NCBI GenBank assembly: GCA_026991135.1
Contig: JALXCD010000067.1
Location: 532-64,531, forward strand
Direction: 5' to 3'
Source: Deltaproteobacteria bacterium
Lineage (GTDB): Bacteria > Desulfobacterota > Dissulfuribacteria > Dissulfuribacterales > QOAL01
Length of the DNA: 64,000 nucleotides
Positions 4,378-64,000 of this stretch are shown here, one piece after another (positions within the stretch are counted from its first letter, which is position 1; the number at the start of each line of letters is the position of its first letter). Position numbers and translations under genes: made by a program. Under the pieces are notes generated by a model. It was not told the origin of the DNA and made no database searches. It saw nothing but the letters and a program-made list of their open reading frames with translations.

Positions 4378-4378
4378 G

Positions 4379-5209
4379 TCAGGAATTAAGAATATGTCTC
4401 AGGGATTTTTCAATATTCGGATATTTAAAATCGAATCCTTCTTTTAAAAGCCTCTTTGGAAAGACCTTTTTGGAGCTTATGAGGACTGAGGCAGCTTCAC
4501 CATATATAATTTTTAGTGCAAGTGGCGGAACAGGCAGAAAGGCAGGCCGTCCAAGGACCTTGGCTAGGGCCTTTGTAAAATTTTTGTTGGTAACAGGGTT
4601 TGGTGAGACAGCATTTAAAATACCTGTAAGCCCTTTTTTCAAAATAAATTCGTATATATTTAAAAGATCAGATATATCTATCCAACTGGTGTACATATTC
4701 CCTTTTCCAATGGGCCCTCCTAGGCCGAGCTTAAAGGGAAGAAGCATTTTTTTTAAGGCCCCTCCTTCCTTACCTAGGACCACTCCAAATCGCAATATGG
4801 CCAGATTTTTATTGCATTTTTGGGTCTCGGCCTCCCATGCCCTTGAAAGATTGCCCAAAAAATCAGAAGAAAGCGACTTACAGTCTTCATCACATTCTTT
4901 ATCATCAGGGTATATTCCAATGGCAGAGGTTGATATGAGATATTTGACATCTGATTCATTAATGGCCCTTACTACCTTTTTAGTGGTGTTTATTCTGCTG
5001 TCATAAAGTACCTTTTTGTAGTCCTTTGACCACCTTTTGATTATGGGTGCACCTGCCAGATTGATGACCGCATAGCCCCCTTTTAGTTTTTCTATAATTT
5101 CGGTAACTGTATCATCCCTTTTTATTACAACATGGTCCCTAAATCTTTTTTGCACATGTGTTCCAATAAAACCATTGGCACCAGTGATAGCTATTTTTGG
5201 ATTTTTCAT
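4379..5209 (-). CDS. TIGR01777/YfcH-like NAD-dependent epimerase family protein
   Basis: N-terminal Rossmann motif 'IAITGANGFIGTHV'. The C-terminal DUF1731-like tail and the length are consistent with this family. Confidence 0.7.
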   Translation of the reverse strand: MKNPKIAITGANGFIGTHVQKRFRDHVVIKRDDTVTEIIEKLKGGYAVINLAGAPIIKRWSKDYKKVLYDSRINTTKKVVRAINESDVKYLISTSAIGIYPDDKECDEDCKSLSSDFLGNLSRAWEAETQKCNKNLAILRFGVVLGKEGGALKKMLLPFKLGLGGPIGKGNMYTSWIDISDLLNIYEFILKKGLTGILNAVSPNPVTNKNFTKALAKVLGRPAFLPVPPLALKIIYGEAASVLISSKKVFPKRLLKEGFDFKYPNIEKSLRHILNS

Positions 5210-5215
5210 AACCTT

Positions 5216-7315
5216 CTAGTTTTTTGCTGCCTGTATTGCGGTTATTGCGACGGTATTTACTATGTCTTCCACCAGACAGCCCCTGCTAAGGTCATTTACT
5301 GGTTTTTTAAGGCCCTGGATGATGGGGCCAATGGCTATGGCATTTGACGAGCGCTGAACCGCCTTGTAGGTATTGTTTCCGGTATTTAGGTCAGGAAAGA
5401 TAAAAACCGTTGCCCTTACTGCAACCTTGCTCTCAGAGGCCTTTTTCCTTGCCACCTCCATATCAAATGCAGCATCATACTGCATGGGGCCGTCTATAAG
5501 GAGCCCTGGCCTCATCTTCTTTGCAATTTTAACAGCCTCCCTGACCTTTTCTACATCCTTTCCTTTTCCGGAAGTTCCAGTGGAATAGGACAGCATGGCA
5601 ACCCTTGACTCTATTCCAAAGGATGCAGCGGTTTCAGCCGATGTAACGGCAATGGCAGCAAGCTCCCTGGAATCAGGGTCTGGGTTAACGGCGCAGCCTC
5701 CAAATACAAGTACTTTTGTCGGAAGACACATGAAAAAGACACTTGAGGCAATAATTATTCCAGGCCTTGTCTTTATGATCTGAAAGGCCGGCCTTAGGAC
5801 ATCATGAGTGGCATGGGCTCCCCCCGATACCATACCATCTACCACATCCATATAGACCATCATAGCTCCAAAATAGTTTGCATCAAGCATGGCATCCCTT
5901 GCAGCATCAAGGGTGATACCTTTTTTTGTCTTAGTTCAAAAAACCTCTGAATAAAATTGTCAAGAAAGCTCGAATGAGTATGATCAATGATTTCAACACC
6001 GTCAAGATTAACCTCCAAAAGGGCAGCATTATCTAAGACAGTATCCCTATTTCCCAAAAGAACGATATCTGTCACACCTCTGGTTTTTAATATCTCTGCT
6101 GCCCGCAATATCCGTTCATCATTGCTTTCTGGAAGGACGATTTTTTGTTTTTTCTCTTTGCCCATTCAAAGAGCCTGTACTGGAACATCAGGGGAGTTAT
6201 GATGTGTGAGGGTTTTAATGAAAGCCGATTTTTAATCTCATCTATATCAACCCTGGATTCAAAGGCCCCAAGGGCAATGTCAATTTTTTGGGGATAGTTG
6301 GCGGTTATCTGGGGCTTAAGACGGCTTGCAGCCATGGCAGCAGAGAAGGTATCTTCTTTAATTCCTATTATTGGAATGGATACCGACCTCAGGCCGTTTA
6401 TAAGGTGCTCAACCCTTTTCCCAGGTCTAACCTCCAGTCAAAAGGATGCCGGAAATATTGGGAAAGGTCTTTGAAAAAAGGGAGGAAAGGGTTCCGACCA
6501 CTATATCCTCTCTGTCACCTGGTGTTATTACCAAATCTCCGTTTTCAAGGTGTGAAAGGTAATTGTCCAGAGTCATTGCCGCTACCTTAAATTAGAGTGG
6601 CTATTTGGCTAAGGCTCGAAGGTTTCCCATAGATAAGTGTTCCGTTTAACGTTTCCAGTATTTCACCTACAGTTGGGGATGCCAGTTCAGGTATATGGGG
6701 TATAAAATAGAACGGCACATGGTCCTTTGCCTCTTTTTCAAAAAGATCTTCGAGGCTTTTTATCATCTTGGGCTCAACCATGTTGATTATGGTTGCAAGA
6801 TGAAAACAGCCGTGGGAAGAAATGGCCTTTGAAGATATTTTAAACTCCTCCAAAATCTCCCTTGGGCCTTGTTCCTTTGCATTCATTACGCCAAGAATTT
6901 CGGCTCCAAGATTTTGGGTAATCTCTATATTGGCATCTACATCAAATCCTGCACTGATTCCACTTGACTCAAAGCCTCCAATGATAACAAAGTCAAATCT
7001 TTCCTTTATCTTGTCATATCTTTCAATAACTGCCTGAACTATATCCCTAAATTTTCCATCAGCCCCAAGGGCCTGAATCTCATCGACCTTAAAGACATGT
7101 GCATCCTTATAGTCTATATCCAGATCATATCTTTTAAGGATGAGGTCAAGATCGTTGTCTAGCTTCGGGCCTGAACGAATTACAGGTCTAAAAAAGCCGA
7201 GTTTTCCTACAACTCTTGAGGCAAGCTCCATCATGCCTAGGGTAACCATCAATTTACCACTTCCTGGCTCTAAAGAAGTGATATATATGGCATCATGTTC
7301 TTTATTTAAGGGCAT
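5216..7315 (-). pseudogene. pta: phosphate acetyltransferase (long-form Pta), disrupted by at least 4 frameshifts
   Basis: ORF pieces 6587..7315, an untracked piece at about 6430..6590, 6087..6335, 5860..6165 and 5216..5890 together span 2100 nt. My hand translation aligns them colinearly with the E. coli-type 714-aa Pta: P-loop-like N-domain, DRTGG region ('DLVITPGDREDIV'), and PTA domain ('KIVLPESNDERILRAA' ... '[19 protein letters not shown]'). Frame changes lie near 6589-6591, 6425-6433, 6141-6153 and 5921-5927. Confidence 0.8.
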
Positions 7316-50238: not shown

Positions 50239-51109
50239 AAATATCTCTGAGACCTTTGATGCCCATACAGTAGCGCTCTTTTTGGCCAGGGGGGAAGAGA
50301 CTTTGGAGCTTTTTGATTTCTGGTCATTCTCAGATGATATTGAAGAAGATACAAATATTTCAAAGGGCCAGGGGCCCATTGGATGGGTATTCAGGGAGAA
50401 AAGGCCCCTTAATATCTCAAGGTTTAGAGAAGGAGAAAGGCTTCTTGGAATTTACAAGAAAAGGCCTGGGATAAAGGCCCTTTTGGCAGTGCCTTTGCCA
50501 GAAGGCCAAGGGGTCCTCATGGTGGACAGCAAGACAAGACTTGCCTTTTCAAAAAAGCAAGAAAAGATACTCTTAAATTTTTCAAGGACTATCTCTCATC
50601 TCCTTGCCCTTGAAAAGGCTATTTCCATACAGCCTGTTTTTAAAGCAATAATTAAGTGGCAATCCATGAAATTTAGTGCCTATGAGGATAATCTTCTTTC
50701 CTTTATGTCAATCTTTTCCTTTGAGCACTGCTTTATCTGCAGGCATATACCTGATCGTCAATTTTTCATGGTAAAAGGTGTGATTTCAAGTGACGAAAAT
50801 GAATATCTTCGATTCTTGAGGGACAGGAGATTTGAGGTTGGAGCAGGGATGGCAGGCTGGATTTTTAAGGAACAGTCTGATTTTTTGAAGGTTCATGGAA
50901 AAAAAGGGCCACGGGGTTTTCTATTTGAAAAGGATGAAGATATACCCTTTAAAGACAACATTCTTGGGTTTTTTTATCCTCCTAAAGAAAATGCCATTTC
51001 GGTGGAACATGTCCTTTTATTTTCAGGCCCAACAGTTACCTATTCCTTCCCCAGAGATGTAATTCTTGAGATAAAAAGGGGGCTTTCAAGGGGGGCACCA
51101 TGGGAATAG
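50195..51109 (+). CDS. GAF-domain protein (probably two GAF-like modules)
   Basis: 'GPIGWVFREKRPL' ... 'ALLAVPLPEGQGVLMVDS' is GAF-like. A second, similar half carries 'GMAGWIFKEQ'. It overlaps the mreB start by 10 nt; the start is uncertain (ATG 50195 or TTG about 50222). Confidence 0.55.
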   Translation: MKRPFHLKSLELLIKNISETFDAHTVALFLARGEETLELFDFWSFSDDIEEDTNISKGQGPIGWVFREKRPLNISRFREGERLLGIYKKRPGIKALLAVPLPEGQGVLMVDSKTRLAFSKKQEKILLNFSRTISHLLALEKAISIQPVFKAIIKWQSMKFSAYEDNLLSFMSIFSFEHCFICRHIPDRQFFMVKGVISSDENEYLRFLRDRRFEVGAGMAGWIFKEQSDFLKVHGKKGPRGFLFEKDEDIPFKDNILGFFYPPKENAISVEHVLLFSGPTVTYSFPRDVILEIKRGLSRGAPWE

Positions 51110-52146
51110 GGGAGACAAGTTCTTTTGGCCGTCTTAAGAACCGAATAAAGCAGGATGTAGCCATTGATCTTGGCACAGCTAATACCCTTGTTTTCTTGGA
51201 GGGAAGGGGAATAGTCCTTTCAGAGCCAACTGTGCTTGCCCTGGATGAATTTGGAAGGCCCTTTGCCCTTGGAGAAAAGGCTAAGGGTTTTCTTGGAAAG
51301 ACACCTCCAAATATAATAGTAAAAAGGCCCATGAAAGGCGGAGTAATTGAAGATCTTGATGCGGTTTCCACTTTTTTAAGAAGCATTGTGGAGTTATCCA
51401 GAGAACATCGTCCCTTTTTGTCCTCAAGGGTTGTAATTTGTATTCCATCAAGGCTTACCCAGATTGAGAAAAAAGCGGTTCTCGATGCTGCAAAGGAGGC
51501 CGGATTTAAAAAGGTTTTCTTGATTGAAGAGGCAATGGCAGCTGCCATTGGCGCAGGTCTTGATATCTCAAGGAAGAGGCCCTTTATGGTGGTGGACATT
51601 GGGGGTGGAACCACCGAGGTAGCGGTAATAAGCCAGATGGCGTATCTTTACTCTGACTCAAAAAGGCTAGGTGGCGATGACGTGGATGAAGCCATCTCAA
51701 GGTGGCTTTTAAGAAACGAGGGGCTTAAGGTTGGGCCGGTAAGTTGTGAAAGGCTCAAGTGGGAGATCGCTTCGGTTTGGCCAGAAGATTTTGAGGAAAT
51801 TCCTAGTGTTGATGTTGCGGGGATAGACGTGAAGGGACTTTCTCCTGTAAAAAGAAAGATCGGGCCAGGAGATATTTACAAGGCAATAATTCCCATCTTT
51901 GAAGAAATCTGCGATTCATTTTTAGAAGCCATAAAAAATATCCCTGAAAGTGCTAGGACTGAGATCGAAAGGAAAGGAATAACCTTGACGGGCGGAACCG
52001 GCCTATTAAAGGGAGCCAGGAAGTTTTTGGAAAAAAGACTTTCTGTACCTGTTAAGTTGACGGTCAACCCCCTTGAAACCATTGTTCTAGGGGCAGGAAA
52101 GACCCTTTCAGACCTTAAATACTACAAGAACGTCTTCATTAATTGA
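51100..52146 (+). CDS. mreB: rod-shape-determining actin homologue MreB
   Basis: 'VAIDLGTANTLVF', 'PMKGGVIED', 'VVDIGGGTTEVAVIS' and 'ITLTGGTGLLKG'. Confidence 0.9.
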   Translation: MGIGETSSFGRLKNRIKQDVAIDLGTANTLVFLEGRGIVLSEPTVLALDEFGRPFALGEKAKGFLGKTPPNIIVKRPMKGGVIEDLDAVSTFLRSIVELSREHRPFLSSRVVICIPSRLTQIEKKAVLDAAKEAGFKKVFLIEEAMAAAIGAGLDISRKRPFMVVDIGGGTTEVAVISQMAYLYSDSKRLGGDDVDEAISRWLLRNEGLKVGPVSCERLKWEIASVWPEDFEEIPSVDVAGIDVKGLSPVKRKIGPGDIYKAIIPIFEEICDSFLEAIKNIPESARTEIERKGITLTGGTGLLKGARKFLEKRLSVPVKLTVNPLETIVLGAGKTLSDLKYYKNVFIN

Positions 52147-52161
52147 TTTTAAGGGTATGTT

Positions 52162-53112
52162 ATGACAAAGGAGCCATATCTTTCAGTAATTATTCCCATT
52201 TATAACGAGGTTGAAAACATAGAGGAGCTTTTAAAAAGGGTCTTTGAGGTCCTTAAGGGCATGGGTGTAAGTTTTGAGGTGATAGCAGTTGATGACGGAA
52301 GCAGTGATGGAAGCACAGAGCTTTTAAAGGGACTAAAGGCAAATTTCAATGAATTAAGGGTGGTGATCTTTAGGAGAAATTTCGGGCAAAGCGCTGCCAT
52401 GACCGCAGGCTTTGACCTTTCCAGGGGAAAGATAGTTGTTACCATGGATGGTGACCTTCAAAATGACCCAAAGGACATACCAAGGCTCGTTAAGGCAATA
52501 GAAGACGGTTATGATGTGGTTACAGGTTGGAGAAAGGACAGGAAGGATGCATTCCTTTCGCGCCTTTTGCCTTCAAGGGTTGCCAACTGGATAATAGGAA
52601 AGGCAACCGGAGTAAGACTCCATGACTATGGCTGTTCCCTTAAGGCATACAGGCAGGAGGTAGCCAAGAATCTTCTTCTATATGGAGACCTCCACAGGTT
52701 CATACCTGTTTTGGCTGAGCTTCAAGGGGCACGGATCAAAGAGGTGGTGGTTACCCACCATCCAAGGACAAGGGGAAAGAGCAAATATGGGATTGGAAGG
52801 ACGTACAGGGTACTTCTAGACCTCATTCTCATGCTCTTTTTTCAAAAGTTTGCCACGCGTCCCCTACAGTTTTTTGGCCTGACTGGTGGAATCATGCTTT
52901 TTTTCGGGTTTTTTATCGAAATTTATCTCACCTATGTAAAGCTTTTCCTGGGAAAGGATATTGGCAATCGCCCCCTCCTTCTTTTGGGCTTACTACTTTT
53001 TCTTTCAGGTCTTATTCTCTTTGGTATAGGGCTTTTGGCTGAGCTCATCATCAGGACCTATTATGAGGCAAGTGGCAAAAGGATCTATGCCATAAGGGAG
53101 ATAGTTGAATAG
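52162..53112 (+). CDS. GT2 polyprenol-phosphate glycosyltransferase (ArnC/GtrB/DPM1-like)
   Basis: 'LSVIIPIYNE', 'IAVDDGSSDGS' and 'VTMDGDLQNDP', plus two C-terminal TM helices. Confidence 0.85.
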   Translation: MTKEPYLSVIIPIYNEVENIEELLKRVFEVLKGMGVSFEVIAVDDGSSDGSTELLKGLKANFNELRVVIFRRNFGQSAAMTAGFDLSRGKIVVTMDGDLQNDPKDIPRLVKAIEDGYDVVTGWRKDRKDAFLSRLLPSRVANWIIGKATGVRLHDYGCSLKAYRQEVAKNLLLYGDLHRFIPVLAELQGARIKEVVVTHHPRTRGKSKYGIGRTYRVLLDLILMLFFQKFATRPLQFFGLTGGIMLFFGFFIEIYLTYVKLFLGKDIGNRPLLLLGLLLFLSGLILFGIGLLAELIIRTYYEASGKRIYAIREIVE

Positions 53113-53118
53113 ACCCCC

Positions 53119-54102
53119 TTGAATAAAATGAAAGGGTTAAGGGGCATAGCAAGGTTTTCCATAAGGGCTGTTGTCAGCGCCCTTTTGCTAATATGGCTTT
53201 TTTCAAGGATAGATGCAAAAAGGGTCCTTCACTCCTTCTCCCTGATACCTTTCGAGGCGTGGGCCCTTGCCTTTTTTCTCTATATCTCATCCCAGGTGAT
53301 AAGCTCACTCAGATGGTATGTAATCGTAAAAACTTTAGGGTTTAAAAGGTCTTTTCTTACGATTTTAAAATACTATTTTGTAGGCATGTATTTTAACCTC
53401 TTTCTCCCAACTGCCATTGGAGGCGATGTTTTAAAGGTATTTTTTCTTGCAAGAGGTGGGGAAAGTAAGCTCAGAGCAGGGTATTCTATCTTTTCCGACA
53501 GGGTCTTTGGCTTCTGGGCCATGTTTATTCTTGGCGGAATAACCTGTCTCATACACCCAGGCCTATTGCCTGGAAAGTGGCAATTTCTCTTGGTTGCCAT
53601 ATTTTTTTCAAGTACGTTTTTGGCAATCTTTGCACCTGTCTTAAGGCGCATTCTTAAGGTCCTTTCACGGGGCCTTGTCAAAAAGAGCGAACTTTTTAAG
53701 GCCATTTTTGAAAAAATAGAGGCCCTTTTAATTTTCTGGAAACATCCGGCCATACTTTTTAAGGCCCTTTTTCTTTCCATAACACTTCAGCTTTGCGGCA
53801 TGTATGGGGCCTATCTTTTGGGAAAGGGGCTTTTGATTCCCCTTGATTTTGATTATTACCTGGCTGTAATCCCCCTTATTTCTGTTCTGACCATTATTCC
53901 CATAAGCGTAAGTGGCATTGGCCTAAGGGAGGGCGGTTTTGCCTTTTTTTTTGGAATAAGGAATGTTCCAATGGAAAAGGCAATAACATTGAGCCTGGGA
54001 GTCTTTGCAATTCAGGCGCTATCAGCACTTTTGGGTGGAATATTTTATATCCTCGGCGCTCACAAAGAGGTGGAAAAAGGTGAAAAGGCCCTTAAAAAAT
54101 AG
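53119..54102 (+). CDS. flippase-like / LPG-synthase-TM (UPF0104) family membrane protein
   Basis: 'YFVGMYFNLFLPTAIGGDVLKVFFL' is the family signature. 8 TM helices. Confidence 0.7.
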   Translation: MNKMKGLRGIARFSIRAVVSALLLIWLFSRIDAKRVLHSFSLIPFEAWALAFFLYISSQVISSLRWYVIVKTLGFKRSFLTILKYYFVGMYFNLFLPTAIGGDVLKVFFLARGGESKLRAGYSIFSDRVFGFWAMFILGGITCLIHPGLLPGKWQFLLVAIFFSSTFLAIFAPVLRRILKVLSRGLVKKSELFKAIFEKIEALLIFWKHPAILFKALFLSITLQLCGMYGAYLLGKGLLIPLDFDYYLAVIPLISVLTIIPISVSGIGLREGGFAFFFGIRNVPMEKAITLSLGVFAIQALSALLGGIFYILGAHKEVEKGEKALKK

Positions 54103-55654
54103 CTATGAAGCGTGGTTCTGGGTCCTTTTTGCAGCCCTTGTGGCAATAAGGTTTTCCTTTCTTTTCCTTGCCCCCTTGGAGCTTTCTCCAGATGAGGCCT
54201 ATTACTGGGACTGGTCAAGGAGGCTTTCCTGGGGCTATTACAGCAAGCCCCCAATGGTTGCCTGGCTGATCGGCCTTTCAACAAAGCTTTTGGGGGCAAA
54301 TGAAATGGCTGTTAGGCTTCCTGCAGTTATCCTTGGGCTTGGAACCGTCCTTGCAATATATCTATTTTTTAAAAAAGAGGTTGGCGAAAGGGCAGGCCTT
54401 TGGGGTGCCCTTATCTATTCTTCAACCATAGGTTCAGCAGTTTCAGGCTATATTATGACCATAGATGCCCCACTTCTCTTTTTCTGGACCCTTGCCCTTA
54501 TGACCATCTGGATTTCTCTAAAAAGGGCCGTAAAAGGCCACGGAGAAGATTATGCCCTTTGGCTTTTTTCCGGAGCCTTTGTAGGTCTAGCACTTCTAAG
54601 CAAGCAGACTGCCATTTTCCTTCCCCTGGCAACGCTTCTTTTTCTCATGGTCCTTTTCCCCCAAAGGAATCTTTTTAAAAAAAAGGGCATTTATCTTTTC
54701 CTCTTGGTCCAGCTTTTACTTTTACTTCCCTTTTTATATTGGAACTATCAGCACAACTGGATAACCTTTGCTCATACTGCCCATCACTTTAAGGGCCTTG
54801 AAGAAAAGGGTCCCCTCTTAAACCTTAAAACCCTTTTTGAGTTTCTTGGAGGTGAGGCAGGGTTAATAACCCCTGTAACATTTTTTTGTCTTTTGGCCTG
54901 CTCCCTTTGCTTTTTTTTCTGGGCAATCAGAACCTTTAAGGGCAAAGGGGATCGTAATGAAAGAGATTATTTTATCTTGTTTCTCCTTTTGACCGGGTTT
55001 TTGCCCCTTTTGGCCTGCCTTTTTTTAAGCCTCAAACAGAGGGTTAATGCAAACTGGCCAGCCCCCTTTTATATCTCTCTTTGCATACTTTTGGGCCTTT
55101 GGGTGGAAAGAGATGAGATTTGTAGCCTTGGCCTTTTAAGGAAAATAAAGGAAAAGGTCCTGCCAGCAGGTGTTATCATTGGGGCCATTTTGGTCCTTTT
55201 TGTCTATTTTTCGCCCTTTTTTTTGGCCAAACTCGGTCTTTTGGGAAGGCCCTTTGACCCAACTGTCCGATTAAGGGGCTGGAAGGAGCTAGCAATAAAG
55301 GTTGAGGAAGTTTTTAATAGGTTACCTTTCCGCCAAAGGACTATACTTATAACGAGGAGGCGGCAGACAGCAAGCGAGCTCACTTTTTATATCAGATGGC
55401 ATCCAACCGTCTATAGGTGGAATGGCCTGCGGAGTGAAGTAAAAAGCCAGTATGAGCTTTGGCCACAGCCTGAGACAAAAAAAGGGCTAAATGCGCTACT
55501 TGTATTTGATGCAGATAAGGGCCTAAACGGGATAGAAAGGTGCTTTAAGGAGCTTAGGCCCTTAGGGACCATCAATATCCCCCTTGGTAATCAAAGGTTT
55601 AGGAAGTTCAAGGTGTTTTGGGGAAAGGGACTTTACAGATGGAAGGGAGACTAG
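54080..55654 (+). CDS. ArnT/PMT-like glycosyltransferase (GT39/GT83)
   Basis: 'SPDEAYYWDWSRRLSWGYYSKPPMVAWL' is a typical first-loop DE/YY motif. The ORF opens at 54005; I prefer the GTG at 54080, which follows GAGGTGG. Confidence 0.8.
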   Translation: MKRPLKNSYEAWFWVLFAALVAIRFSFLFLAPLELSPDEAYYWDWSRRLSWGYYSKPPMVAWLIGLSTKLLGANEMAVRLPAVILGLGTVLAIYLFFKKEVGERAGLWGALIYSSTIGSAVSGYIMTIDAPLLFFWTLALMTIWISLKRAVKGHGEDYALWLFSGAFVGLALLSKQTAIFLPLATLLFLMVLFPQRNLFKKKGIYLFLLVQLLLLLPFLYWNYQHNWITFAHTAHHFKGLEEKGPLLNLKTLFEFLGGEAGLITPVTFFCLLACSLCFFFWAIRTFKGKGDRNERDYFILFLLLTGFLPLLACLFLSLKQRVNANWPAPFYISLCILLGLWVERDEICSLGLLRKIKEKVLPAGVIIGAILVLFVYFSPFFLAKLGLLGRPFDPTVRLRGWKELAIKVEEVFNRLPFRQRTILITRRRQTASELTFYIRWHPTVYRWNGLRSEVKSQYELWPQPETKKGLNALLVFDADKGLNGIERCFKELRPLGTINIPLGNQRFRKFKVFWGKGLYRWKGD

Positions 55655-55657
55655 GGC

Positions 55658-56260
55658 TTGGTTGACTGGATTTTTCAACTGGATAAGGCCCTTTTTTTCA
55701 TGATAAACAGGGCCCATTTTCCATTTTTAAACACCGTAATGATAAAGGTCTCTGATTTTTCCTTCTGGGTCCCCATTATAGCCCTTTTTATAGTCTATAG
55801 ACTCGTAAGGGGAACTAATCGCGAAAGGCTCATGTGGCTTTTGGGTATTTTTCTTGTAGTTACAAGTGATGCCCTTTGTGCAAGGCTCCTTAAGCCCCTT
55901 TTTGGAAGGATAAGGCCCTATGAGGCCCTTGACGGGGTTTATCTTTTTAAGCATTCAAAATGGATAATTACAGATCCCCATTTCAGAAAGGCAATAGCCG
56001 GCACCCTTTCATGGCCCTCGTGCCATGCCACCAACTGCTGGTCAGTCACATTCTATCTTTTGGGAACAAAAAGGCTCCTTGGCCTCTTTTTCGCCCCTAT
56101 TGCCCTTCTGGTCAGCTATTCAAGGATATATCTAGGGGTTCACTATCCCCTTGATTGCCTTGGAGGAGTTTTAGTAGGGGCCATTTGGGGAGGAGTCTTT
56201 GTTATTGTTTATAGAATTATTCTATCAAATCTTGATAAAAGATATTCGGATCTTTTCTAA
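55658..56260 (+). CDS. PAP2 family lipid phosphatase
   Basis: KX6RP ('KPLFGRIRPY'), 'PSCH' and 'SRIYLGVHYPLD' motifs. TTG start. Confidence 0.8.
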   Translation: MVDWIFQLDKALFFMINRAHFPFLNTVMIKVSDFSFWVPIIALFIVYRLVRGTNRERLMWLLGIFLVVTSDALCARLLKPLFGRIRPYEALDGVYLFKHSKWIITDPHFRKAIAGTLSWPSCHATNCWSVTFYLLGTKRLLGLFFAPIALLVSYSRIYLGVHYPLDCLGGVLVGAIWGGVFVIVYRIILSNLDKRYSDLF

Positions 56261-56458: not shown

Positions 56459-57112
56459 TTAAAGATGGGTTTCAGCTTCTTTTGCCATTTGTTTTAAAAC
56501 TTGGATTACTTCCGGCTTTTCTTTCAATTCAGGATAGTCTTCTAATGTTGTTGCTGCCTTGAGATAAAGATCAAAATCCTGACCAAGAAATTTTTTTCTA
56601 AAACCCCTTCTTGCCATATCAAAATCGTAATGGAATTTTCCCCAGAGAAAGGCAAGATCATACGGGTCTTTCCAAAGAACTCGTCGTCCGCAAGCATATA
56701 TCTTGTTTAAAAAAAGATCATAATCGCTGAAGGTGACAATACCGTAAACATCTTCCGTGTCGTTTATTGGTTTGAAAGGAAACGATATAAATGACACCTT
56801 TATTTCCTGGATGAATACATCGAGATTGTCGGCTCCAGGTTGTTGGATGAAACCTTCGATATCAAAATTCTTTTGTATCTTCCCAAGAATTGAGGTAAAT
56901 GTCCTGTCTTCGTTAAAAAAGAAATCTAAATCTAGGCTTTCCCTATGGTTGTGGCGAAACATGATGGCAGTTCCGCTGCCAAGGACAAAGGAAGGAAAAA
57001 TTCTTTGTATTTCATGTGCCAGGTGAAACAGTTTTTTCTGCCGGGTTTTTGGACACAAGGGATTTTCTCCATTCCTTAACTGCTGCCCTACAACCTCGAA
57101 AGACATCGTCAT
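56459..57112 (-). CDS. AbiEii/AbiGii-type nucleotidyltransferase (type IV TA toxin family)
   Basis: 'LGSGTAIMFRHNHRESLDLDFFF' matches the GGTAL..HR.S.D.DFF NTase signature. 217 aa. Confidence 0.6.
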   Translation of the reverse strand: MTMSFEVVGQQLRNGENPLCPKTRQKKLFHLAHEIQRIFPSFVLGSGTAIMFRHNHRESLDLDFFFNEDRTFTSILGKIQKNFDIEGFIQQPGADNLDVFIQEIKVSFISFPFKPINDTEDVYGIVTFSDYDLFLNKIYACGRRVLWKDPYDLAFLWGKFHYDFDMARRGFRKKFLGQDFDLYLKAATTLEDYPELKEKPEVIQVLKQMAKEAETHL

Positions 57113-57329
57113 AGGTATTAATCACATGGCTGCAGACATCAGGCCAGAGTTCAAATGCAAGTCGAAGAGCCTTGTAGTTTGTTGAGTCACACATAATTCT
57201 ATGAACTAAAACTTCCAGCATGATCTTATTGTCAACGGCATCCCATGCCCATTTTTTTAATTCAGCCGGGACAGAAACTATCTGGGTGAATTTCGGCCTG
57301 ATTCGTTTAACGGTGCCTTTGACGTGCAT
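57012..57329 (-). CDS. hypothetical protein upstream of and overlapping the NTase (possible cognate antitoxin)
   Basis: 105-aa ORF whose last 101 nt overlap the NTase ORF in another frame. No SD seen. No family recognised. Confidence 0.35.
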   Translation of the reverse strand: MHVKGTVKRIRPKFTQIVSVPAELKKWAWDAVDNKIMLEVLVHRIMCDSTNYKALRLAFELWPDVCSHVINTYDDVFRGCRAAVKEWRKSLVSKNPAEKTVSPGT

Positions 57330-57413
57330 AACTTATTTTAACACGTTATGATGTCTCTGAAAAAGTAATTATTCTTTAGAGAAAAAGGGAGTCTAGGCTT
57401 TTATCGTCCTCTG

Positions 57414-57456
57414 GGGAAGGAACTTTGAAGGGTTCATTTTTATATGCCTCCAGCAT
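57414..57456 (-). repeat. decayed duplicate of the WYL-stop/DUF2779-start junction
   Basis: 57433-57456 (TTCATTTTTATATGCCTCCAGCAT) equals 60567-60591 apart from one missing C. Similarity is weaker on the flanks. On the minus strand it reads ..EMLEAYKN and ATG-AAC-CCT-TCA-AAG (MNPSK..), against ..EKMLEAYEK* and MNLSK.. in the intact copy. Confidence 0.7.
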
Positions 57457-57728
57457 CTCTTACGGATTGCAGACCTGGTTCCTTAAAAAACATGAACTTG
57501 CTCGCATTAGTCCAAAAGCTTAAGGATCGACTCTGGCATCAATGGGCCTTACACACTCTGGCGAGTAATTGGTGGGCTGTTTACCAAAAGGCTAACCGGC
57601 CAGGCGGTCATCTTGTCTGAAGGTATGGGGCCAAGAAGTGCAACAAGTTCCCTGTCTGGCGTCTTTCTTAAAAGCCATTTTTCATAGCAAGATTTTTTAA
57701 GGGATAACTGGCATATCTTTCCTGTTTT

Positions 57729-58001
57729 TCAGTATCTGGATAATTTTTTGTAAATATCCCGCCTGTGGCCAACCTTTACAATCCAGACAACAAGCTTCCT
57801 ATCCTTTATTGAGTATATTATTCGATAATTGCCTTGACGGATTCTGTATCTTTCTTGCCCTGAGAGCTTTTCACATCCAGGTGGCCGAGGATCATTTGCA
57901 AGGGATTTGATCCGCTTGATGATCTTCTTTAAATCCTTATCAGGGATCTTGTCCAGGTCCTTAAGAACGGATTTCTTTAAAAATATTTTATAGGCGGCCA
58001 T
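57729..58001 (-). CDS. RelE/ParE family type II toxin
   Basis: 'YRIRQGNYRIIYSIKDRKLVVWIVKVGHRRDIY' is the typical RelE/ParE core. 90 aa. Confidence 0.85.
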   Translation of the reverse strand: MAAYKIFLKKSVLKDLDKIPDKDLKKIIKRIKSLANDPRPPGCEKLSGQERYRIRQGNYRIIYSIKDRKLVVWIVKVGHRRDIYKKLSRY

Positions 58002-58221
58002 GCCGTTTAAGCTCTTTTAACACATCCTCAAAGGCAATTAGGGGTTCGTCTGCCCTTTCTTCAAATGCAGCCAAGTCTTCTGCATCTTCTGCAAGGCTTA
58101 GACGTATGGCCTCGTTAATAAGCTCTGACATGGACCGTGATGTGGCAGCTGCCTTTATTTTTAAGGCCCTGTGAATATCAGGATCCAGATATACTGTGGC
58201 CCTTTTGCTAAGCTGTGCCAT
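57988..58221 (-). CDS. ribbon-helix-helix antitoxin
   Basis: 'KRATVYLDPDIHRALKIKAAATSRSMSELINEAIRLSL' is an RHH fold pattern. It overlaps the toxin start by 14 nt. Strong SD AGGAGGTG. Confidence 0.8.
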   Translation of the reverse strand: MAQLSKRATVYLDPDIHRALKIKAAATSRSMSELINEAIRLSLAEDAEDLAAFEERADEPLIAFEDVLKELKRHGRL

Positions 58222-58307
58222 ATTGTCACCTCCTGGTATTAAAGCAGTATAACATCAAAATGTTTTTGTGACTATAGGTTGGTTAGATGAGGATGTATTT
58301 TTTTCTT

Positions 58308-58323
58308 TGCCAGCATTTACCAG
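58308..58323. promoter_or_regulatory. candidate operator upstream of the parA remnant (TGCCAGCATTTACCAG)
   Basis: Nearly the same two-hexamer unit as the first two iterons of the downstream array (TGCCAGCATATTGCCAG at 58996-59012). Confidence 0.45.
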
Positions 58324-58346
58324 AAAAGCACGAGAAGGGGCACGAA

Positions 58347-58739
58347 ATGCTAGTAATTGCCATAGCCAATCAGAAGGGAGGAGTCGGAAAGACCGCAACC
58401 ACCTTTAATCTTGCTCATGCCATTTCAAGGGCTGGGAAAAAGGTCCTCATGGTTGACCTTGATCCCCAGGGGTCGCTTACTGACTATGCGGGCTTTATTC
58501 CTTCAGAGCAGGATGACACCATCTATGAGGTGCTTCACGGCCAAAAATCCATTCTCGACGTCATACTTAAAGAAGAAGGGGAGGGCGCAGGCGACATTAA
58601 GGTCTTTTCTCCCATTATCTACACAGTAAGAATACAGGAATCCCCTGTGGCAAAGCAGGCTATATTTGATTACGCCCCAGAGACCGAGGCAGGAAAAAGA
58701 TTCTTGGAGCTTGGAAGGGAGGTAATAGATGAGTGCTAA
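58347..58739 (+). pseudogene. parA: ParA/Soj-type partition ATPase with a large in-frame internal deletion (probably non-functional)
   Basis: Deviant Walker A 'NQKGGVGKTATT' and A' 'VLMVDLDPQGS' are present. The ORF is only about 130 aa. It jumps to a ParA C-terminal-like end ('ESPVAKQAIFDYAPETEAGKRFLELGREV') with no Walker B region. Confidence 0.6.
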
Positions 58740-59095: not shown

Positions 59096-60571
59096 TCAAA
59101 GGCCGGCGACTTTACACAGAAATTCATAAAGCCTTAAAAGGGCCAGGGTATCCAGGCGGCAGTATTCTAGAAGTGCATTCCTTATTTTTTCCCTCTCCTC
59201 CCTGTCTTTTATCAGGTGAAGTGTGGCAAAGGTGTCCATGGCCATTCCCCCATTTCTGATTTCAAGTCCATTGTAATCAAGGGTTTTGTCATCTGGGAAA
59301 ATGGCAGGCAGGACAGACTTTAGCGAAAGGCTGCCGTTAAATTCCGGGTGGTAGTAGCCCCCGTTCCTAAATGGCTCCATAAGGTCCTCAAATCTTTCTA
59401 GAAGGGAGAGAAGCTCATTTTTGCGAAGAGGGTCATAATCTGCAAGCCCTTTTATTATCCCTTCTTCAAAGCCCTTGTTAAAGGCCACAATGCTCCCTTG
59501 GGGCCTTATGTCCTTTAGCATATGTGAAATGACATGATTTCTAGGGTCCTCGTTTTCATCTGCCAGAAACTCCCTGTGTTCAAGGTTTCCGTCTTCGTAA
59601 AGTATGTGGAGGGAGTATTGAAAGGGTATATGCATGTAGGGCCTTTGTCCGTCAAACCTTGGGATTGGCTCATTGAAGGTTTCAAAGTCAAAAAAGTGTA
59701 TGGGATAGGAAAGGCGAGAAAGAAACTGCCTTATCTTTTTCCTGTCAACATGGACGGAACCCGTCTTTTCGGTCTCTATCTGAAGTGCCTGTATGGCATT
59801 GGGCCTAAAGTCTTCCGGGATGTCTGAGATTTTAAGAATGCCTTCCTGGTAAAGCTCAAATTTCTTAGCCTGAGTTAGGCGGTAAAGATTAAAAATAGAG
59901 CGCTCGGGCACATTGCGCCAGCACCATGACATATAGTCGCAATCATAAAAATTAAAACAGTGGGGACCAATATCCACTTGGGGCATATCGCCTTTAAGCA
60001 TCGTAGAAAATTTTTGTCTGTAATCCTCAATTTCTCCCTGCTTGGACACCACCTCATGGGTTACGTCCTTAATGGCAAAAAGCCCCTTGATGTCTAGCTC
60101 TCCCTTGCGGACGTAGCTGTTGTCTATATGAATGATGAAGGCCCTTTTTATCCTAAGGCCAAAGTTTGAAAAAGCCCTATATTGAAAGGCAACATCAAGA
60201 ATGTGATAGTCCTTTACGGACGTAGAGGCCTTTACCTCATATATTTCCCAGCCATCCCCGTCTCTTTTGAGGATGTCTGCCATTGCAAAGTCTCCCCTTG
60301 CGCTTACCGTGGCTTCATAAATCGTATCCACTCCGGCATCAAGCCACTTCCTGGTCTGGCTGATCATGCCTTTAAAGTTTTCAGGGTCAAAGGCCACCTC
60401 TTTTCCGCCAGGAAAAAGCCTTTTAGCCAGATCTCCCACCATGCGTCCAGATTCAAATCTGGCCTCTTGCCCCTGGTCCGGCTCATCCCTTGGAATGTCG
60501 CTATTTTTGTAGAGCCAAAGGGATTTTGCGCACTTGACTCCCCTTACAAAAAGGGACTTAGAAAGATTCAT
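59096..60571 (-). CDS. DUF2779 protein: N-terminal Cas4/RecB-like PD-(D/E)xK nuclease with Cys cluster, plus a C-terminal DEDD-like exonuclease
   Basis: 'MNLSKSLFVRGVKCAKSLW' is a DUF2779-type N-terminus. Also 'DGWEIYEVKAS', 'HCFNFYDCDYMSWC', 'FFDFETF' and 'YCRLDTLAL'. Confidence 0.7.
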   Translation of the reverse strand: MNLSKSLFVRGVKCAKSLWLYKNSDIPRDEPDQGQEARFESGRMVGDLAKRLFPGGKEVAFDPENFKGMISQTRKWLDAGVDTIYEATVSARGDFAMADILKRDGDGWEIYEVKASTSVKDYHILDVAFQYRAFSNFGLRIKRAFIIHIDNSYVRKGELDIKGLFAIKDVTHEVVSKQGEIEDYRQKFSTMLKGDMPQVDIGPHCFNFYDCDYMSWCWRNVPERSIFNLYRLTQAKKFELYQEGILKISDIPEDFRPNAIQALQIETEKTGSVHVDRKKIRQFLSRLSYPIHFFDFETFNEPIPRFDGQRPYMHIPFQYSLHILYEDGNLEHREFLADENEDPRNHVISHMLKDIRPQGSIVAFNKGFEEGIIKGLADYDPLRKNELLSLLERFEDLMEPFRNGGYYHPEFNGSLSLKSVLPAIFPDDKTLDYNGLEIRNGGMAMDTFATLHLIKDREEREKIRNALLEYCRLDTLALLRLYEFLCKVAGL

Positions 60572-61566
60572 TTTTCATATGCCTCCAGCATTTTTTCCAA
60601 GGCATGCCTAATTTCTTCTCTTAGGCCTTCTGGCTCTAGGAGCTTTGCCTCTGGCCCATAGGTCATCACCCACCTTTTTATGTCGTACCAGCCAGAGGTG
60701 ACCATCTCGAGTATGATGGAGCCGTCGGGCTTTTCAGTAATCTTCTGCTTTCTTGCCCATTTGCGCTCCCTTATGTAGCGGGCCTGATCCCTTGAAAACC
60801 AGATCTTTACGGTGAACTCCTCGTCGTAGATGATGCCAAAGGTGGTATTAAGGAACTTTTCTGGGTCAAAGTCCTCGGGATACTCAAAGGTCTCGTCTGT
60901 TATCTTTAGATCCTTTATTCGCTCAACGGCCAGAATCCGTATCTCATCAAATCGACAGATATTAACAAAGCAATATAGCCCACCGTTGTTTTCAAAAAAA
61001 TAAAGGGGAGCGATCCTGAAATTCTTGATCTTGTCGTCTGAAAAGGCATGGTAGGTTACTAGACAGACCTTGCCCTTGAGTATGGAGCTACAAAGGTCCT
61101 CTATCACCTGCTGCTTGTCAGAATAGTCCTTGTTGAACTTAGAAGGCGCAACAAAGAGAGAGCGCACCTTTTCAAGCTGGGGAAAAAGCCCGGAAGGGAC
61201 AAACATCTCTATCTTTTTGAAGGCGGAATCTATCCTCTTTTCTATGTCTGTTCCTCTAAAGGCCGCCTCTCCCTTTTTAAGGAGATAAAGAGAGATGATC
61301 TCGGAAAGTGAAAAACGCACATCCGGTATGGTAAGATTTGGAAGTCTTTTTTGAAACTCATCAATAAAAAACCACCTCTTTTTTCTTCCAAGGGGCTCCT
61401 TTTCATTTGTCAGTGGAAAGCCCAGCTCCTCTATGGTGTTTAGAAGCCGATAGACAGACCTTTTGTCTATCTCCAGGCGTTCTGAAAGCTCGTTGACCGT
61501 TGCCCCGGAGGGCCTACTCAAAAGATCTATGGCCCTTAGAAGTTTTATAAGGTTTGCGCCCCTCAT
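60568..61566 (-). CDS. WYL-domain transcriptional regulator (wHTH-WYL-WCX architecture)
   Basis: wHTH 'LLRAIDLLSRPSGATVNELSERLEIDKRSVYRLLNTIEELGFPL'. WYL-like core 'VCLVTYHAFSDDKIKNFRIAPLYFFENNGGLYCFV'. The ORF is open to a GTG at 61623; I prefer the ATG at 61566. The stop overlaps the DUF2779 ATG (ATGA). Confidence 0.8.
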   Translation of the reverse strand: MRGANLIKLLRAIDLLSRPSGATVNELSERLEIDKRSVYRLLNTIEELGFPLTNEKEPLGRKKRWFFIDEFQKRLPNLTIPDVRFSLSEIISLYLLKKGEAAFRGTDIEKRIDSAFKKIEMFVPSGLFPQLEKVRSLFVAPSKFNKDYSDKQQVIEDLCSSILKGKVCLVTYHAFSDDKIKNFRIAPLYFFENNGGLYCFVNICRFDEIRILAVERIKDLKITDETFEYPEDFDPEKFLNTTFGIIYDEEFTVKIWFSRDQARYIRERKWARKQKITEKPDGSIILEMVTSGWYDIKRWVMTYGPEAKLLEPEGLREEIRHALEKMLEAYEK

Positions 61567-61604
61567 TTTCCCTTTCTTAAAATTTTCTGAAATTTTTTTT
61601 AAAA

Positions 61605-61625
61605 GTGTGACCAGTTTCGTCACAC
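61605..61625. promoter_or_regulatory. perfect inverted repeat GTGTGAC-N7-GTCACAC in the divergent control region (candidate WYL operator)
   Basis: The 7-bp arms are exact reverse complements. Located between the WYL start (61566) and the ClpP-like start (61695). Confidence 0.5.
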
Positions 61626-61694
61626 ATTGCTGTCATGATAGTTCCCGAAGGCAACTTCACCTCAAACTCCAAACTTTATCATTACGGAGGGAAA

Positions 61695-62264
61695 ATGGAA
61701 AAAGAAAATGTGAGGCAGTCATCGGAAACCCTGGGAGACCAGGGGATAATTTTTATTTCAGGGACCATAAACGAAGGCATATCAGAAGATGTATGCAGGC
61801 AGATCCTGGAGATAAACATCAAGGAGAAGGTGGATCACATCCAGATGATTATAAATTCGTCAGGCGGAGCAATGAACGCAGGCTTTGCAATCATAGACAT
61901 GATGGAGTGGTCATCCATTCCCGTATATACCATTGGCATAGGCATAATCGCTTCCATGGGGCTCATGATTTTTATGGCGGGCGAGAAGGGAAGAAGAGTC
62001 ATAACCCCCAGAACATCCATACTTTCCCATAGGTTTTCCTGGGTCAACCTAGGTCACCATAGCCAGCTTGTGGCTGCAAGGAAGGAAGAGGACCTTGCTC
62101 ACGAAAGGATAGTTGCCCACTACCAGCGCTATACCAGGATTAAGGATCGTGGCGAGCTTGAAAGCACGCTCCTTAGGGACGTGGATACATGGCTGTCTCC
62201 AGGAGAGGCGCTGAAATACGGCATTGCAGATATCATAGAGCCTGGAAGAAGGCAGGCCCTTTAA
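61695..62264 (+). CDS. ClpP-fold (S14-like) serine protease paralogue lacking the N-terminal axial-loop region
   Basis: It aligns by eye to E. coli ClpP from 'RVIFLTG': 'GIIFISG', 'INSSGGAMNAG', 'IASMG' (Ser), 'ILSHRF' (His), 'RDVDTWLSPGEALKYGIAD' (Asp). ATG at 61695 follows the SD GGAGGG; the track ORF starts at 61635. Confidence 0.75.
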   Translation: MEKENVRQSSETLGDQGIIFISGTINEGISEDVCRQILEINIKEKVDHIQMIINSSGGAMNAGFAIIDMMEWSSIPVYTIGIGIIASMGLMIFMAGEKGRRVITPRTSILSHRFSWVNLGHHSQLVAARKEEDLAHERIVAHYQRYTRIKDRGELESTLLRDVDTWLSPGEALKYGIADIIEPGRRQAL

Positions 62265-62289
62265 ACAGTCAAAAAAAGGAGGAAAGCAC

Positions 62290-64000
62290 ATGACAGAAAC
62301 AAATTGCATGGCAGCGGGCTTTGCAGCGCCAACATTAAAAATATCTCCGCTTGGGTCTAGATGGCACGTTGGAAAGGGAGAAACGGACAGGGAGTATTTT
62401 AGAACCAATCTTGAGCATCTGGAAATGATAGAGACAATCATGAAGCTTAGGCTCTGTGAAGCCTGTTTGAGGATAAAGGGACTTGAAAGATTAGAAAAGA
62501 CCCCCTTTGCCAGGCTTGCCCGCAAATATCCTGACTTAAAAAGCGTTAGAGAAGGAATACAATTTCTTGAAGGCAAGAGAAAATTAATGGAAAAGAGCTC
62601 TCTTAAAGAGGGAATAGAGCTTAAACTTTTGCGCCTTGCCGAGACATACGGGCTTAACGAATTTGACCAGCTTATTGTTCAGCTTCTTCTTGTATATCAA
62701 ACCAGTGTGGAATTTAAGGCACTTGTCGAGGCTTGCAATGATGAAACCTGGGGCTCTGTTTTTCCTATGCCCTCTACAGGCGCCATACTTTCTATTTTGT
62801 GTCCGGATTACAAAAGCCAGTTAAACCATCTTCCACATTTCAGCATGGAAGGCACCCTCATTGGGGAATCCATTATCAAGGCGGAAGGCTTTATCAGGAA
62901 AAAGCCTGTAATGGATGTCAACATGAGTCTTGACGGGCAGATTGTGCGTTTCCTCATGGGCGATGAAAGGCGCTACAGGTCCGATTTTTCATGTATAGAA
63001 GTTACACGTCCTTCAGCCGGGCTTGAGCAAGTGATAATAGACGAGAAACTAAAGAAAGACATAGTGGAATATGCGGAAAATTTTGTGCGCTCAAAAAACT
63101 GCAGCCCATGCAATGACAATTTCTTTGGATATGGTACAGGGTTAACAATGCTTTTTCATGGACCTTCCGGGACAGGGAAGACCATGATGGCTCATGCCCT
63201 TGCTGATCATCTGGGGAAAAAGCTTCTGAGTCCCATTTCTGATGATATTGATGAGCTCTTTGATATTTCGGATATTTTGCCTCGCCTATTCAGGGAGGCA
63301 AGGCTTAGCGATGGCATAGTGTTTCTGGATGAGTGCGACGACATCATAAGAGCTGATTCGGCTGCAAACCGCGCCTTTCTTATAGAAATTGAGAAAGCTG
63401 GATGCATAACGATTCTTGCCACGAACAAGGTTTCTGACTTGGATCCAGCCCTTGAGAGGCGTATCAACCTAAGGGTCCGATTTCGTTTGCCAGATAGGGA
63501 TGAAAGGGCAAGAATCTGGCAGACTCTTTTGCCGCCGAATGTCAAAATGGCAGATGATGTAACCTTTGAGGAGCTTGCCGAGAGATTCGTTTTCACAGGA
63601 GGATTGATCAAAAATGCCATAGTGATGGCGTTAAATAGCGCTGAAAAAAAGGGAACAAACATCATCCTTTCTAGAAAGGCCCTATTTAAGGCCGCTTCTT
63701 ACCAGGCTCAGACAATGTTTGATACGTCCAGTCCGGAGCATTCCTATAAGCCTGACATTTCCATCCAGTCCCTTCCCATAAGGGCCGCCGAAAAGGCCTT
63801 TCTCGCCCGCCTTCCGGAAGCACAGAGAAGGAGCCTTGAAAAAAGGGAATGCGGCATTCTTTGCTACCTTGGATGCAGGGATCAGGAAACGGCGGTTTCA
63901 TGTGTGGAGGCTGTTGCTGCAGAATGTGATGCAGGCGTAAGCATGTTCAAGCTTTCGGAAATACTTGCTCCACCCTCCAGGGAGCAAATGGTGCTTGACC
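62290..64000 (+). CDS. AAA+ ATPase (classical clade, Afp15-like N-domain architecture), 3'-partial: runs off the window end
   Basis: Not in the ORF track. My hand translation from the ATG at 62290 (SD AGGAGG 7 nt upstream) gives about 570 codons with no stop. Walker A 'GPSGTGKT' (63160-63183), Walker B 'VFLDECD' (63319-63339), then 'ILATNKVSDLDPALERR', 'RIWQTLLP' and 'TGGLIKNA'. Confidence 0.8.
   Translation, partial: MTETNCMAAGFAAPTLKISPLGSRWHVGKGETDREYFRTNLEHLEMIETIMKLRLCEACLRIKGLERLEKTPFARLARKYPDLKSVREGIQFLEGKRKLMEKSSLKEGIELKLLRLAETYGLNEFDQLIVQLLLVYQTSVEFKALVEACNDETWGSVFPMPSTGAILSILCPDYKSQLNHLPHFSMEGTLIGESIIKAEGFIRKKPVMDVNMSLDGQIVRFLMGDERRYRSDFSCIEVTRPSAGLEQVIIDEKLKKDIVEYAENFVRSKNCSPCNDNFFGYGTGLTMLFHGPSGTGKTMMAHALADHLGKKLLSPISDDIDELFDISDILPRLFREARLSDGIVFLDECDDIIRADSAANRAFLIEIEKAGCITILATNKVSDLDPALERRINLRVRFRLPDRDERARIWQTLLPPNVKMADDVTFEELAERFVFTGGLIKNAIVMALNSAEKKGTNIILSRKALFKAASYQAQTMFDTSSPEHSYKPDISIQSLPIRAAEKAFLARLPEAQRRSLEKRECGILCYLGCRDQETAVSCVEAVAAECDAGVSMFKLSEILAPPSREQMVLD

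Follow-up and report, generated by a model that had tools for sequence, protein, structure and literature searches.

Tandem ATPases of the Cdc48/p97/VAT and Rix7/NVL families are built from two stacked AAA modules that follow an N-terminal domain. Archaeal and actinobacterial Cdc48-like proteins dock on the self-compartmentalised 20S proteasome through their C-terminal tails. To our knowledge, the partners of the ClpP peptidase described so far (ClpX and ClpA/C/E) all belong to the HCLR clade, and dock by internal loops of the IGF type. A different pairing is that of IetAS, reportedly an anti-phage system (work attributed to Gao et al., 2020) made of the ATPase IetA and the protease IetS; IetA has one AAA module and about 370 residues, and its partner IetS is subtilisin-like. 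One of the Cdc48-like proteins that dock on the 20S proteasome is Cpa (PMC6017811). Here we examine the 3' end of a stretch of 64,000 nucleotides (nt), hereafter the window, from a Deltaproteobacteria bacterium (contig JALXCD010000067.1), where a gene for a tandem-AAA ATPase, cut by the window edge, follows a gene for a ClpP-like serine protease, itself preceded by a divergent gene for a WYL-domain regulator. We consider it probable that this WYL-ClpP-AAA module encodes an inducible, dedicated AAA-ClpP protease under the control of the WYL protein.

Direct translation of the plus strand from the ATG at 62290 gives 570 sense codons, with no stop up to the last nucleotide of the window (62290-64000). 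A ribosome-binding site, AAGGAGG at 62276-62282 (+), can be read in the sequence 7 nt 5' of this ATG, and 25 nt separate the ATPase start from the stop of the upstream ClpP-like gene (62262-62264). According to our own arithmetic, the chance that a random frame of 570 codons is free of stops is about (61/64)^570, roughly 1e-12. An earlier note on this DNA had pointed to this frame and attributed its absence from the list of open reading frames (ORFs) to the lack of a stop inside the window. That explanation holds, since the list leaves out ORFs that run off the source sequence. In this span the list gives 62049-62576 (-), 63207-63665 (-), 63686-63901 (-) and 62636-62824 (+, 62 aa); those named in the earlier note match it exactly, and 63686-63901 (-) comes in addition.

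The minus-strand ORFs had been dismissed as antisense artefacts, and we come to the same view, because they lie wholly within a frame whose conservation extends over hundreds of homologues, the most distant at about 27% identity; no independent support was found for minus-strand ORFs of 62290-64000. A reading in which these ORFs are the real genes, and the plus-strand frame is a chance opening or a pseudogene, can call on nothing beyond their presence in a mechanical ORF list. Against it stand the 570-codon frame with its ribosome-binding site and Pfam domains, at least 397 homologues conserved over their full length, and a confident fold model, and on these grounds we reject it with near certainty. 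Moreover, the translated fragment matches the first 77% (residues 1-570) of a 740-residue database protein (P0001) at 100% identity, and the DNA of this protein is present on two metagenome contigs, L001 and L002, that are independent of each other. L001 continues beyond the window end and contains the complete ATPase gene (3629-5851), which ends after 740 codons; the remaining 170 codons lie outside the window, with a projected gene end near 64512, about 512 nt past the edge. The frame at 62290-64000 is thus confirmed as part of a genuine gene of 740 codons, of which the window edge leaves the 5' three quarters. ORF tracks that omit edge-truncated frames can therefore conceal the most informative gene at the end of a window.

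The part of the ATPase gene that lies in the window (62290-64000 (+)) covers an N-terminal winged-helix-containing domain, a first AAA module (D1) and the beginning of a degenerate second one (D2). The homologues found by database search usually measure 740-765 residues and share both Pfam domains. They bear generic names or none, and Desulfobacterota-type metagenomes are their main source; 61 full-length homologues were aligned, with 31-72% identity and conservation from end to end. The N-terminal domain, at 62386-62976 (+), matches the winged-helix domain variant PF22977 (residues 33-229, Pfam E 2.4e-20, 73.6 bits versus a cut-off of 27), and AlphaFold2 models this region as a confident helical domain. 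D1 spans residues ~235-478, at 62992-63723 (+). It scores as a classic-clade AAA module with PF00004 (residues 287-399, E 8e-16, 59 bits versus a cut-off of 21.2), and its motifs are invariant in the 61 homologues: the Walker A motif GPSGTGKT (residues 291-298, 63160-63183), D347 and E348 (DECD) of the Walker B motif IVFLDECD (residues 343-350, 63316-63339), N379 of sensor-1, and the arginine pair R390/R391 (63457-63462) of the second region of homology. The AAA-family membership proposed earlier from the motifs is borne out by these matches, which predict a catalytically competent D1. A D1 profile compared with the Protein Data Bank (PDB) matched Cdc48/p97, Rix7 and FtsH with E values down to 1e-42, and the closest PDB and NCBIfam relatives of the module are Cdc48, FtsH, PAN and CdvC.

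The second module begins at residue ~495 and occupies 63772-64000 (+) in the window, up to residue 570; it extends past the edge to about residue 730. The strand and loop equivalent to Walker A read GILCYLGCRDQETAV and are devoid of the lysine, as is the consensus of this position across the alignment, G-x-S-D-I-x-T-G. The Walker-B-like strand retains an Asp with no conserved Glu, and in the arginine-finger region, L-P-x-E-F, the arginine fingers are gone. Further invariant residues in the C-terminal third of the protein are P656, Q661 and W665. An hhalign comparison of D1 (235-480) with D2 (495-740) is collinear over 202 columns with the motifs in register, and at an E value of 6e-4 and a probability of 28% it is only suggestive by itself; the class of D2 was therefore settled by structure and by intermediate sequences. 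Indeed, a profile of D2 alone returned nothing meaningful among PDB sequences (best E 0.46), so that sequence alone could not classify the module.

The AlphaFold2 model of the full ATPase, built from the alignment, reaches a predicted local distance difference test (pLDDT) score of 83.6 and a predicted template modelling score of 0.73. Its best PDB matches in Foldseek are all tandem-AAA proteins, p97/Cdc48 and Rix7/NVL, over 545-655 aligned columns (E about 1e-18), with template modelling (TM) scores of 0.46-0.61 for Rix7/NVL and up to 0.48/0.61 for Rix7. When the C-terminal 246 residues are modelled alone (pLDDT 88.9), Foldseek matches only classic-clade AAA modules, namely Vps4, Ycf2-FtsHi, Rpt/PAN, p97, spastin and FtsH (E 1e-8 to 1e-6, probability 1.00, TM 0.5-0.6 over ~250 columns). 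Furthermore, in distant relatives with two sets of Walker A/B motifs the D2 profile matches the second AAA module, which is intact there (domain E 1.8e-12, 8e-9 and 8e-6). The two models thus place two consecutive AAA folds in one chain, the Type II arrangement, and the results support the view that D2 is a decayed AAA module, which keeps the fold in the models and has lost the residues for nucleotide binding and hydrolysis. The earlier note had suspected a second module without a P-loop after about residue 470; such a module is found, with its start after about residue 495. The family-specific D2 profile, compared with 1.84 billion cluster representatives, retrieved 189 proteins at E <= 1e-3 and 83 at E <= 1e-30, with D2 always C-terminal in the full-length proteins: the ATPase family is rare.

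The ATPase therefore shares with Cdc48/p97/VAT and Rix7/NVL, its best matches by D1 sequence and by structure, the succession of an N-terminal domain and two AAA modules. It differs from the Cdc48-type proteins in that its D2 is predicted to be catalytically dead, its N-terminal domain is a winged helix and not a double-psi barrel, and the protease to which it is linked is ClpP and not the 20S proteasome. Cdc48 orthology with two nucleotide-binding modules is not what the models indicate, TIGR01243 giving 38.6 bits versus a cut-off of 802.

The gene directly upstream, at 61695-62264 (+), encodes a ClpP-like serine protease. With the ATG at 61695 as its start the protein has 189 aa, and with the alternative ATG at 61635 it has 209 aa. 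The later start is probably the right one, since GGAGGG stands at 61686-61691 and homologue alignments open near residue 20. The protein has the CLP_protease fold according to Pfam (E 2e-34, 119.5 bits versus a cut-off of 20.2), and the Ser-His-Asp triad is kept in all 28 ClpPs of the module. It stays below all NCBIfam ClpP cut-offs (best 110 bits versus 228), and does not have the canonical docking pocket of a housekeeping ClpP. Numbered against an E. coli ClpP sequence that placed the triad correctly, the module proteins carry fixed substitutions at the pocket positions: Y60Q and F82W (each in 28/28), Y62I/V/L, F112V, L114T and L189E. These six residues (Y60, Y62, F82, F112, L114 and L189) form what we take to be the canonical IGF-binding hydrophobic pocket of E. 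coli ClpP. The module ClpPs also have a shorter N-terminal axial region. From these sequence features the upstream gene appears to encode a divergent ClpP paralogue with remodelled pockets.

The ClpP-like protein also matches PHROG families of head-maturation proteases (phrog_94, E 6e-26), and the ATPase matches phrog_3757, whose function is unassigned, which could point to a prophage remnant made of a ClpP-related head-maturation protease and a phage ATPase. However, cellular ClpP models score higher than the head-maturation ones (119.5 bits with Pfam; 110 bits for ClpP versus 60 with NCBIfam), no capsid, portal or terminase gene lies near the module, and a tblastn search with the ATPase as query found no match in 50,697 phage records. 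We reject this prophage origin, which is very improbable.

A scan of one genome per species retrieved 80 loci. In all of the ~25 loci that have both a full-length ATPase and upstream DNA, the ATPase gene is immediately preceded by a co-oriented gene for a ClpP homologue (52-69% identity), and with few exceptions the ClpP gene is preceded in turn by a divergent gene for a WYL homologue (42-53% identity). The taxa concerned include Desulfobacterota, Geobacteraceae, Terriglobia, Synergistaceae, Bacteroidia and Dependentiae. In some Geobacteraceae loci (L012:6192-7153, L016:6492-7247 and L020:6066-7158) one or two extra plus-strand ORFs stand between WYL and ClpP, among them a weak GIY-YIG-like match, a DnaA-type ATPase domain and a 91-aa ORF. 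At L039:7869-8744 the ATPase ORF ends after 292 aa, and at L011:7257-7777 the ClpP match is in two pieces; these breaks may be due to gene decay or to errors in the assembly of metagenome-assembled genomes.

The complete ATPase ends in a short tail in which L732, F733 and G734 are invariant in all 61 homologues. This LFG tail falls in a low-pLDDT region of the AlphaFold2 model, and is presumably flexible. The 20 complete relatives that are adjacent to ClpP all have exactly one Walker A motif and end in LFG followed by 0-19 residues, even at 27-34% identity, whereas in relatives that lack a neighbouring ClpP there are two Walker A motifs and the LFG is missing; four of these six proteins end in KIGF or VGFF. 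This strict co-occurrence of LFG and a single Walker A with an adjacent ClpP is the main reason why we read the tail, by correlation, as a possible ClpP-docking element. Distant relatives (23-29% identity, 840-1080 aa) with two intact AAA modules and a much longer N-terminal region are found at L028, L031, L033, L036, L040 and L041, with neither ClpP nor WYL adjacent. The KIGF and VGFF ends of the distant relatives sit at the very C-terminus and can be likened to the ClpP-docking tripeptide of the ClpX type.

The arrangement recalls ClpXP, ClpAP and ClpCP in that an AAA+ gene is adjacent to, and co-oriented with, a gene for a ClpP-family peptidase with an intact triad, and the short hydrophobic-Phe-Gly element of the ATPase is a candidate docking motif comparable to IGF(G) of ClpX. 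Unlike ClpX and ClpA, D1 is of the classic clade, the candidate docking element is a C-terminal tail and not a loop, and the ClpP pocket is replaced. No internal IGF or LGF loop was identified in the ATPase, whose LFG is C-terminal. The ATPase is not a Clp/Hsp100 unfoldase by family models either, those for ClpX giving E 0.004-0.015 and ~15 bits versus cut-offs of 359-371.

Adjacent genes may be co-regulated without their products forming a complex. The winged-helix ATPase could act on DNA or nucleoprotein, for instance as a remodeller or a clamp-loader-like repair factor working with the DUF2779 nuclease described below, while the ClpP paralogue would serve the housekeeping ClpX or ClpA. The N-terminal winged-helix domain, the frequent adjacency of DUF2779, the kinship of the regulator with DNA-damage regulators, and the weak matches of the ATPase to the RFC and RuvB families all fit such a role. 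On the other hand, a ClpP paralogue devoid of the canonical Y60, Y62, F112, L114 and L189 is unlikely to serve ClpX or ClpA, the terminal LFG and single Walker A strictly co-occur with an adjacent ClpP, and the best structural matches of the ATPase are protein unfoldases, not DNA motors. We regard independent functions for the two proteins as improbable.

The regulator gene, at 60568-61566 (-), encodes 332 aa from the ATG at 61566, a start that agrees with the gene call on L001. Pfam recognises a helix-turn-helix (HTH) domain, WYL (E 1.4e-6) and WCX (E 1.6e-20) in the protein, which among solved structures is nearest to DriD (8tp8 and others, E about 2e-9) and PafC; BrxR and CapW are absent among its solved relatives at E < 0.01. 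The domain order is that of the DriD/PafBC/CapW/BrxR family, in which the regulator gene is likewise divergent from its target operon. If the longest ORFs are taken (WYL 60568-61623 (-) and ClpP 61635-62264 (+)), the divergent genes are separated by a gap of 11 bp and the operator is covered, and for both reasons these starts are considered too far upstream. With starts at 61566 for WYL and 61695 for ClpP, a 128-bp AT-rich spacer is obtained, which holds at 61605-61625 a perfect inverted repeat, GTGTGAC-N7-GTCACAC, operator-like and picked out by both a repeat finder and the family motif.

This family motif comes from an expectation-maximisation search of 17 WYL-ClpP intergenic regions, which gave the consensus TGTGnC-N7(AT-rich)-GnCACA. 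In a leave-one-out analysis, its best match in the whole locus, both strands included, was intergenic in 14 of 17 loci, the WYL-ClpP intergenic region being only 0.5-4% of most loci. The operator-like palindrome was found in the window as well as in the WYL-ClpP intergenic regions of L004-L039. The three domains and the conserved intergenic palindrome place the protein among the HTH-WYL-WCX regulators, with DNA binding predicted. The binding site of DriD is CGAC-N7-GTCG, in which the spacer is AT-rich, and single-stranded DNA (ssDNA) activates this regulator (PMC10853764); PafBC, SiwR and the repressor CapW likewise sense ssDNA (PMC11804915, PMC10693628, PMC11662680). The palindrome and the DriD box are alike in their GnC half-sites and their 7-nt AT-rich spacer, whereas the half-site sequence differs (TGTGnC versus CGAC). 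By extrapolation from these relatives, we infer that the input signal of the regulator could be ssDNA.

We propose that the ATPase is the second gene of a two-gene operon whose first gene encodes the divergent ClpP-type serine protease, and that the DriD-like regulator would control this operon from the shared intergenic palindrome. In such a scheme, ssDNA arising from DNA damage or from an invading element would bind the WYL domain and turn the operon on. The ATPase would assemble as a double-ring hexamer with D1 as its motor and the dead D2 ring as a structural adaptor, and the invariant P-x-L-F-G tails of D2 would attach it to the ClpP paralogue by way of the remodelled pockets, in the manner of the ClpX IGF loops on ClpP or of HbYX tails on the 20S proteasome. 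The complex could then degrade specific targets chosen by the winged-helix domain. We hold the assembly and docking part of this model with moderate confidence, and the choice between a damage response and an anti-phage or anti-plasmid defence role with low confidence. The fully specified version, an unrecognised Clp-type protease that combines a Cdc48-like double ring with dead D2, LFG tails, co-evolved ClpP pockets and an ssDNA trigger through a DriD-like WYL protein, and that would give anaerobic Desulfobacterota and their relatives a proteolytic response or defence set off by damage or infection, is put forward tentatively.

Several observations weigh against a WYL-controlled AAA-ClpP protease. 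In the homologue alignment, D1 has no conserved canonical aromatic pore-loop-1 (Ar-hydrophobic-Gly), an F or Y being found near this position in only ~51% of the sequences, and this weakens the case for a threading unfoldase. The residue order of LFG differs from that of the IGF/LGF loops, and the role of the tail is argued by analogy. A scan of 61400-62400 revealed no sigma-70 consensus promoter. Whether the WYL protein activates or represses, and which ligand it binds, are assumptions taken from relatives that match at only E about 1e-9. Finally, housekeeping genes (AcrB, H+-PPase and ALAD) are also found among the neighbours of the module, so that an island or defence context is only partial.

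The pore loop also bears on a comparison with IetAS. The NCBIfam and PADLOC matches of the ATPase are all below threshold, and the top one is the anti-phage IetA/IteA (PADLOC E 1.2e-18; NCBIfam E 7.9e-18), followed by Cdc48, CdvC, FtsH and PAN. IetA too is paired with a protease, WYL regulators and toxin-antitoxin or defence genes occur nearby, and a D1 without a conserved aromatic pore loop would suit an abortive-infection pair in which the ATPase is a sensor or switch that releases or activates a toxic ClpP-like protease upon infection. Yet the IteA score (NF042959) is far under its cut-off, 64.7 bits versus 510, and covers the generic AAA core only. Unlike the single-AAA IetA, the ATPase is a tandem-AAA protein with a winged-helix domain, and its protease is ClpP-like and not subtilisin-like as IetS. 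Moreover, one would sooner expect a double ring with a C-terminal tail, beside a self-compartmentalising ClpP, in an unfoldase-peptidase machine, and no full-length member of the family was found in the phage or plasmid collections. An IetAS-like pair is therefore an alternative that we judge unlikely. The sole plasmid matches concern an 'AAA family ATPase' of conjugative Serratia plasmids (NZ_MT039141 and others), of the pADAP type of S. entomophila and S. proteamaculans, with 34% identity over residues 241-462 (D1) only; this protein has no winged-helix domain, D2 or LFG tail in common with the ATPase of the window.

If the proposed AAA-ClpP protease is real, the ATPase would be a classic-clade, Cdc48-like partner of ClpP with an inactivated second ring, a C-terminal docking tail and rewired ClpP pockets. 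ClpP would then have been recruited independently by a different motor lineage, with the tail-docking logic of proteasome activators, and WYL-controlled damage and defence responses would gain a proteolytic output through the link with a DriD/PafBC-type ssDNA sensor and a Cas4-like nuclease. In the literature searched, we found no description of the WYL-ClpP-AAA module, of PF22977 or of the ATPase family, and no report of a ClpP-AAA pair as the target of a characterised WYL regulator; new here are the linked ClpP paralogue, the divergent WYL regulator, the palindrome shared among loci and the LFG tail of a module that is rare and tightly conserved. The module is carried by a cultured strain of the Geobacteraceae, Geomobilimonas luticola JCM 17780, and is thus open to experiment.

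Next to the regulator lies an accessory gene for a DUF2779 protein, at 59096-60571 (-) (Pfam DUF2779 E 1.5e-42, and RNase_H_2). DUF2779 is described as a Cas4-like nuclease fused to an RNase-H-like exonuclease (PMC13621843). Homologues adjoin the core of the module in 8 related loci, on either side and in variable position. The genes downstream of the ATPase vary as well (HD, PD-(D/E)XK, WD40, another AAA, MCP and unknowns), and no conserved fourth gene follows the ATPase among the related loci. Past the window end, L001:6212-7668 carries an overlapping pair of Nmad2 (PF18753) and Nmad3 (PF18754), 'nucleotide modification associated' domains with no NCBIfam or PHROG match; the pair was rejected as part of the operon, as it lies 361 nt from the ATPase and beside no other family member. 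Farther downstream, L001:7910-8957 contains a PIN toxin and PhD/YefM antitoxin pair and a short SRAP-domain ORF.

On the other side of the DUF2779 gene, 56459-58739 is a cluster of the toxin-antitoxin or abortive-infection type. It comprises AbiEii (56459-57112 (-)), a ParE toxin (57729-58001 (-)), an RHH antitoxin (57988-58221 (-)) and an apparently truncated, 150-aa N-terminal fragment of a ParA/MinD-like protein (58287-58739 (+)). Among 146 ORFs neighbouring the relatives, DUF2779, restriction-type nucleases, integrases or transposases, and two-component sensors recur, with isolated matches to Zorya, Mokosh, Shosta, BrxL and DrmD; the setting of the module looks like a variable island. Beyond the cluster, 51100-56260 is ordinary chromosomal DNA with MreB, a family-2 glycosyltransferase, an LPG-synthase-type membrane protein, a PMT_2 glycosyltransferase and a PAP2 phosphatase, and this gene content puts the module at the edge of a block of cell-envelope genes.

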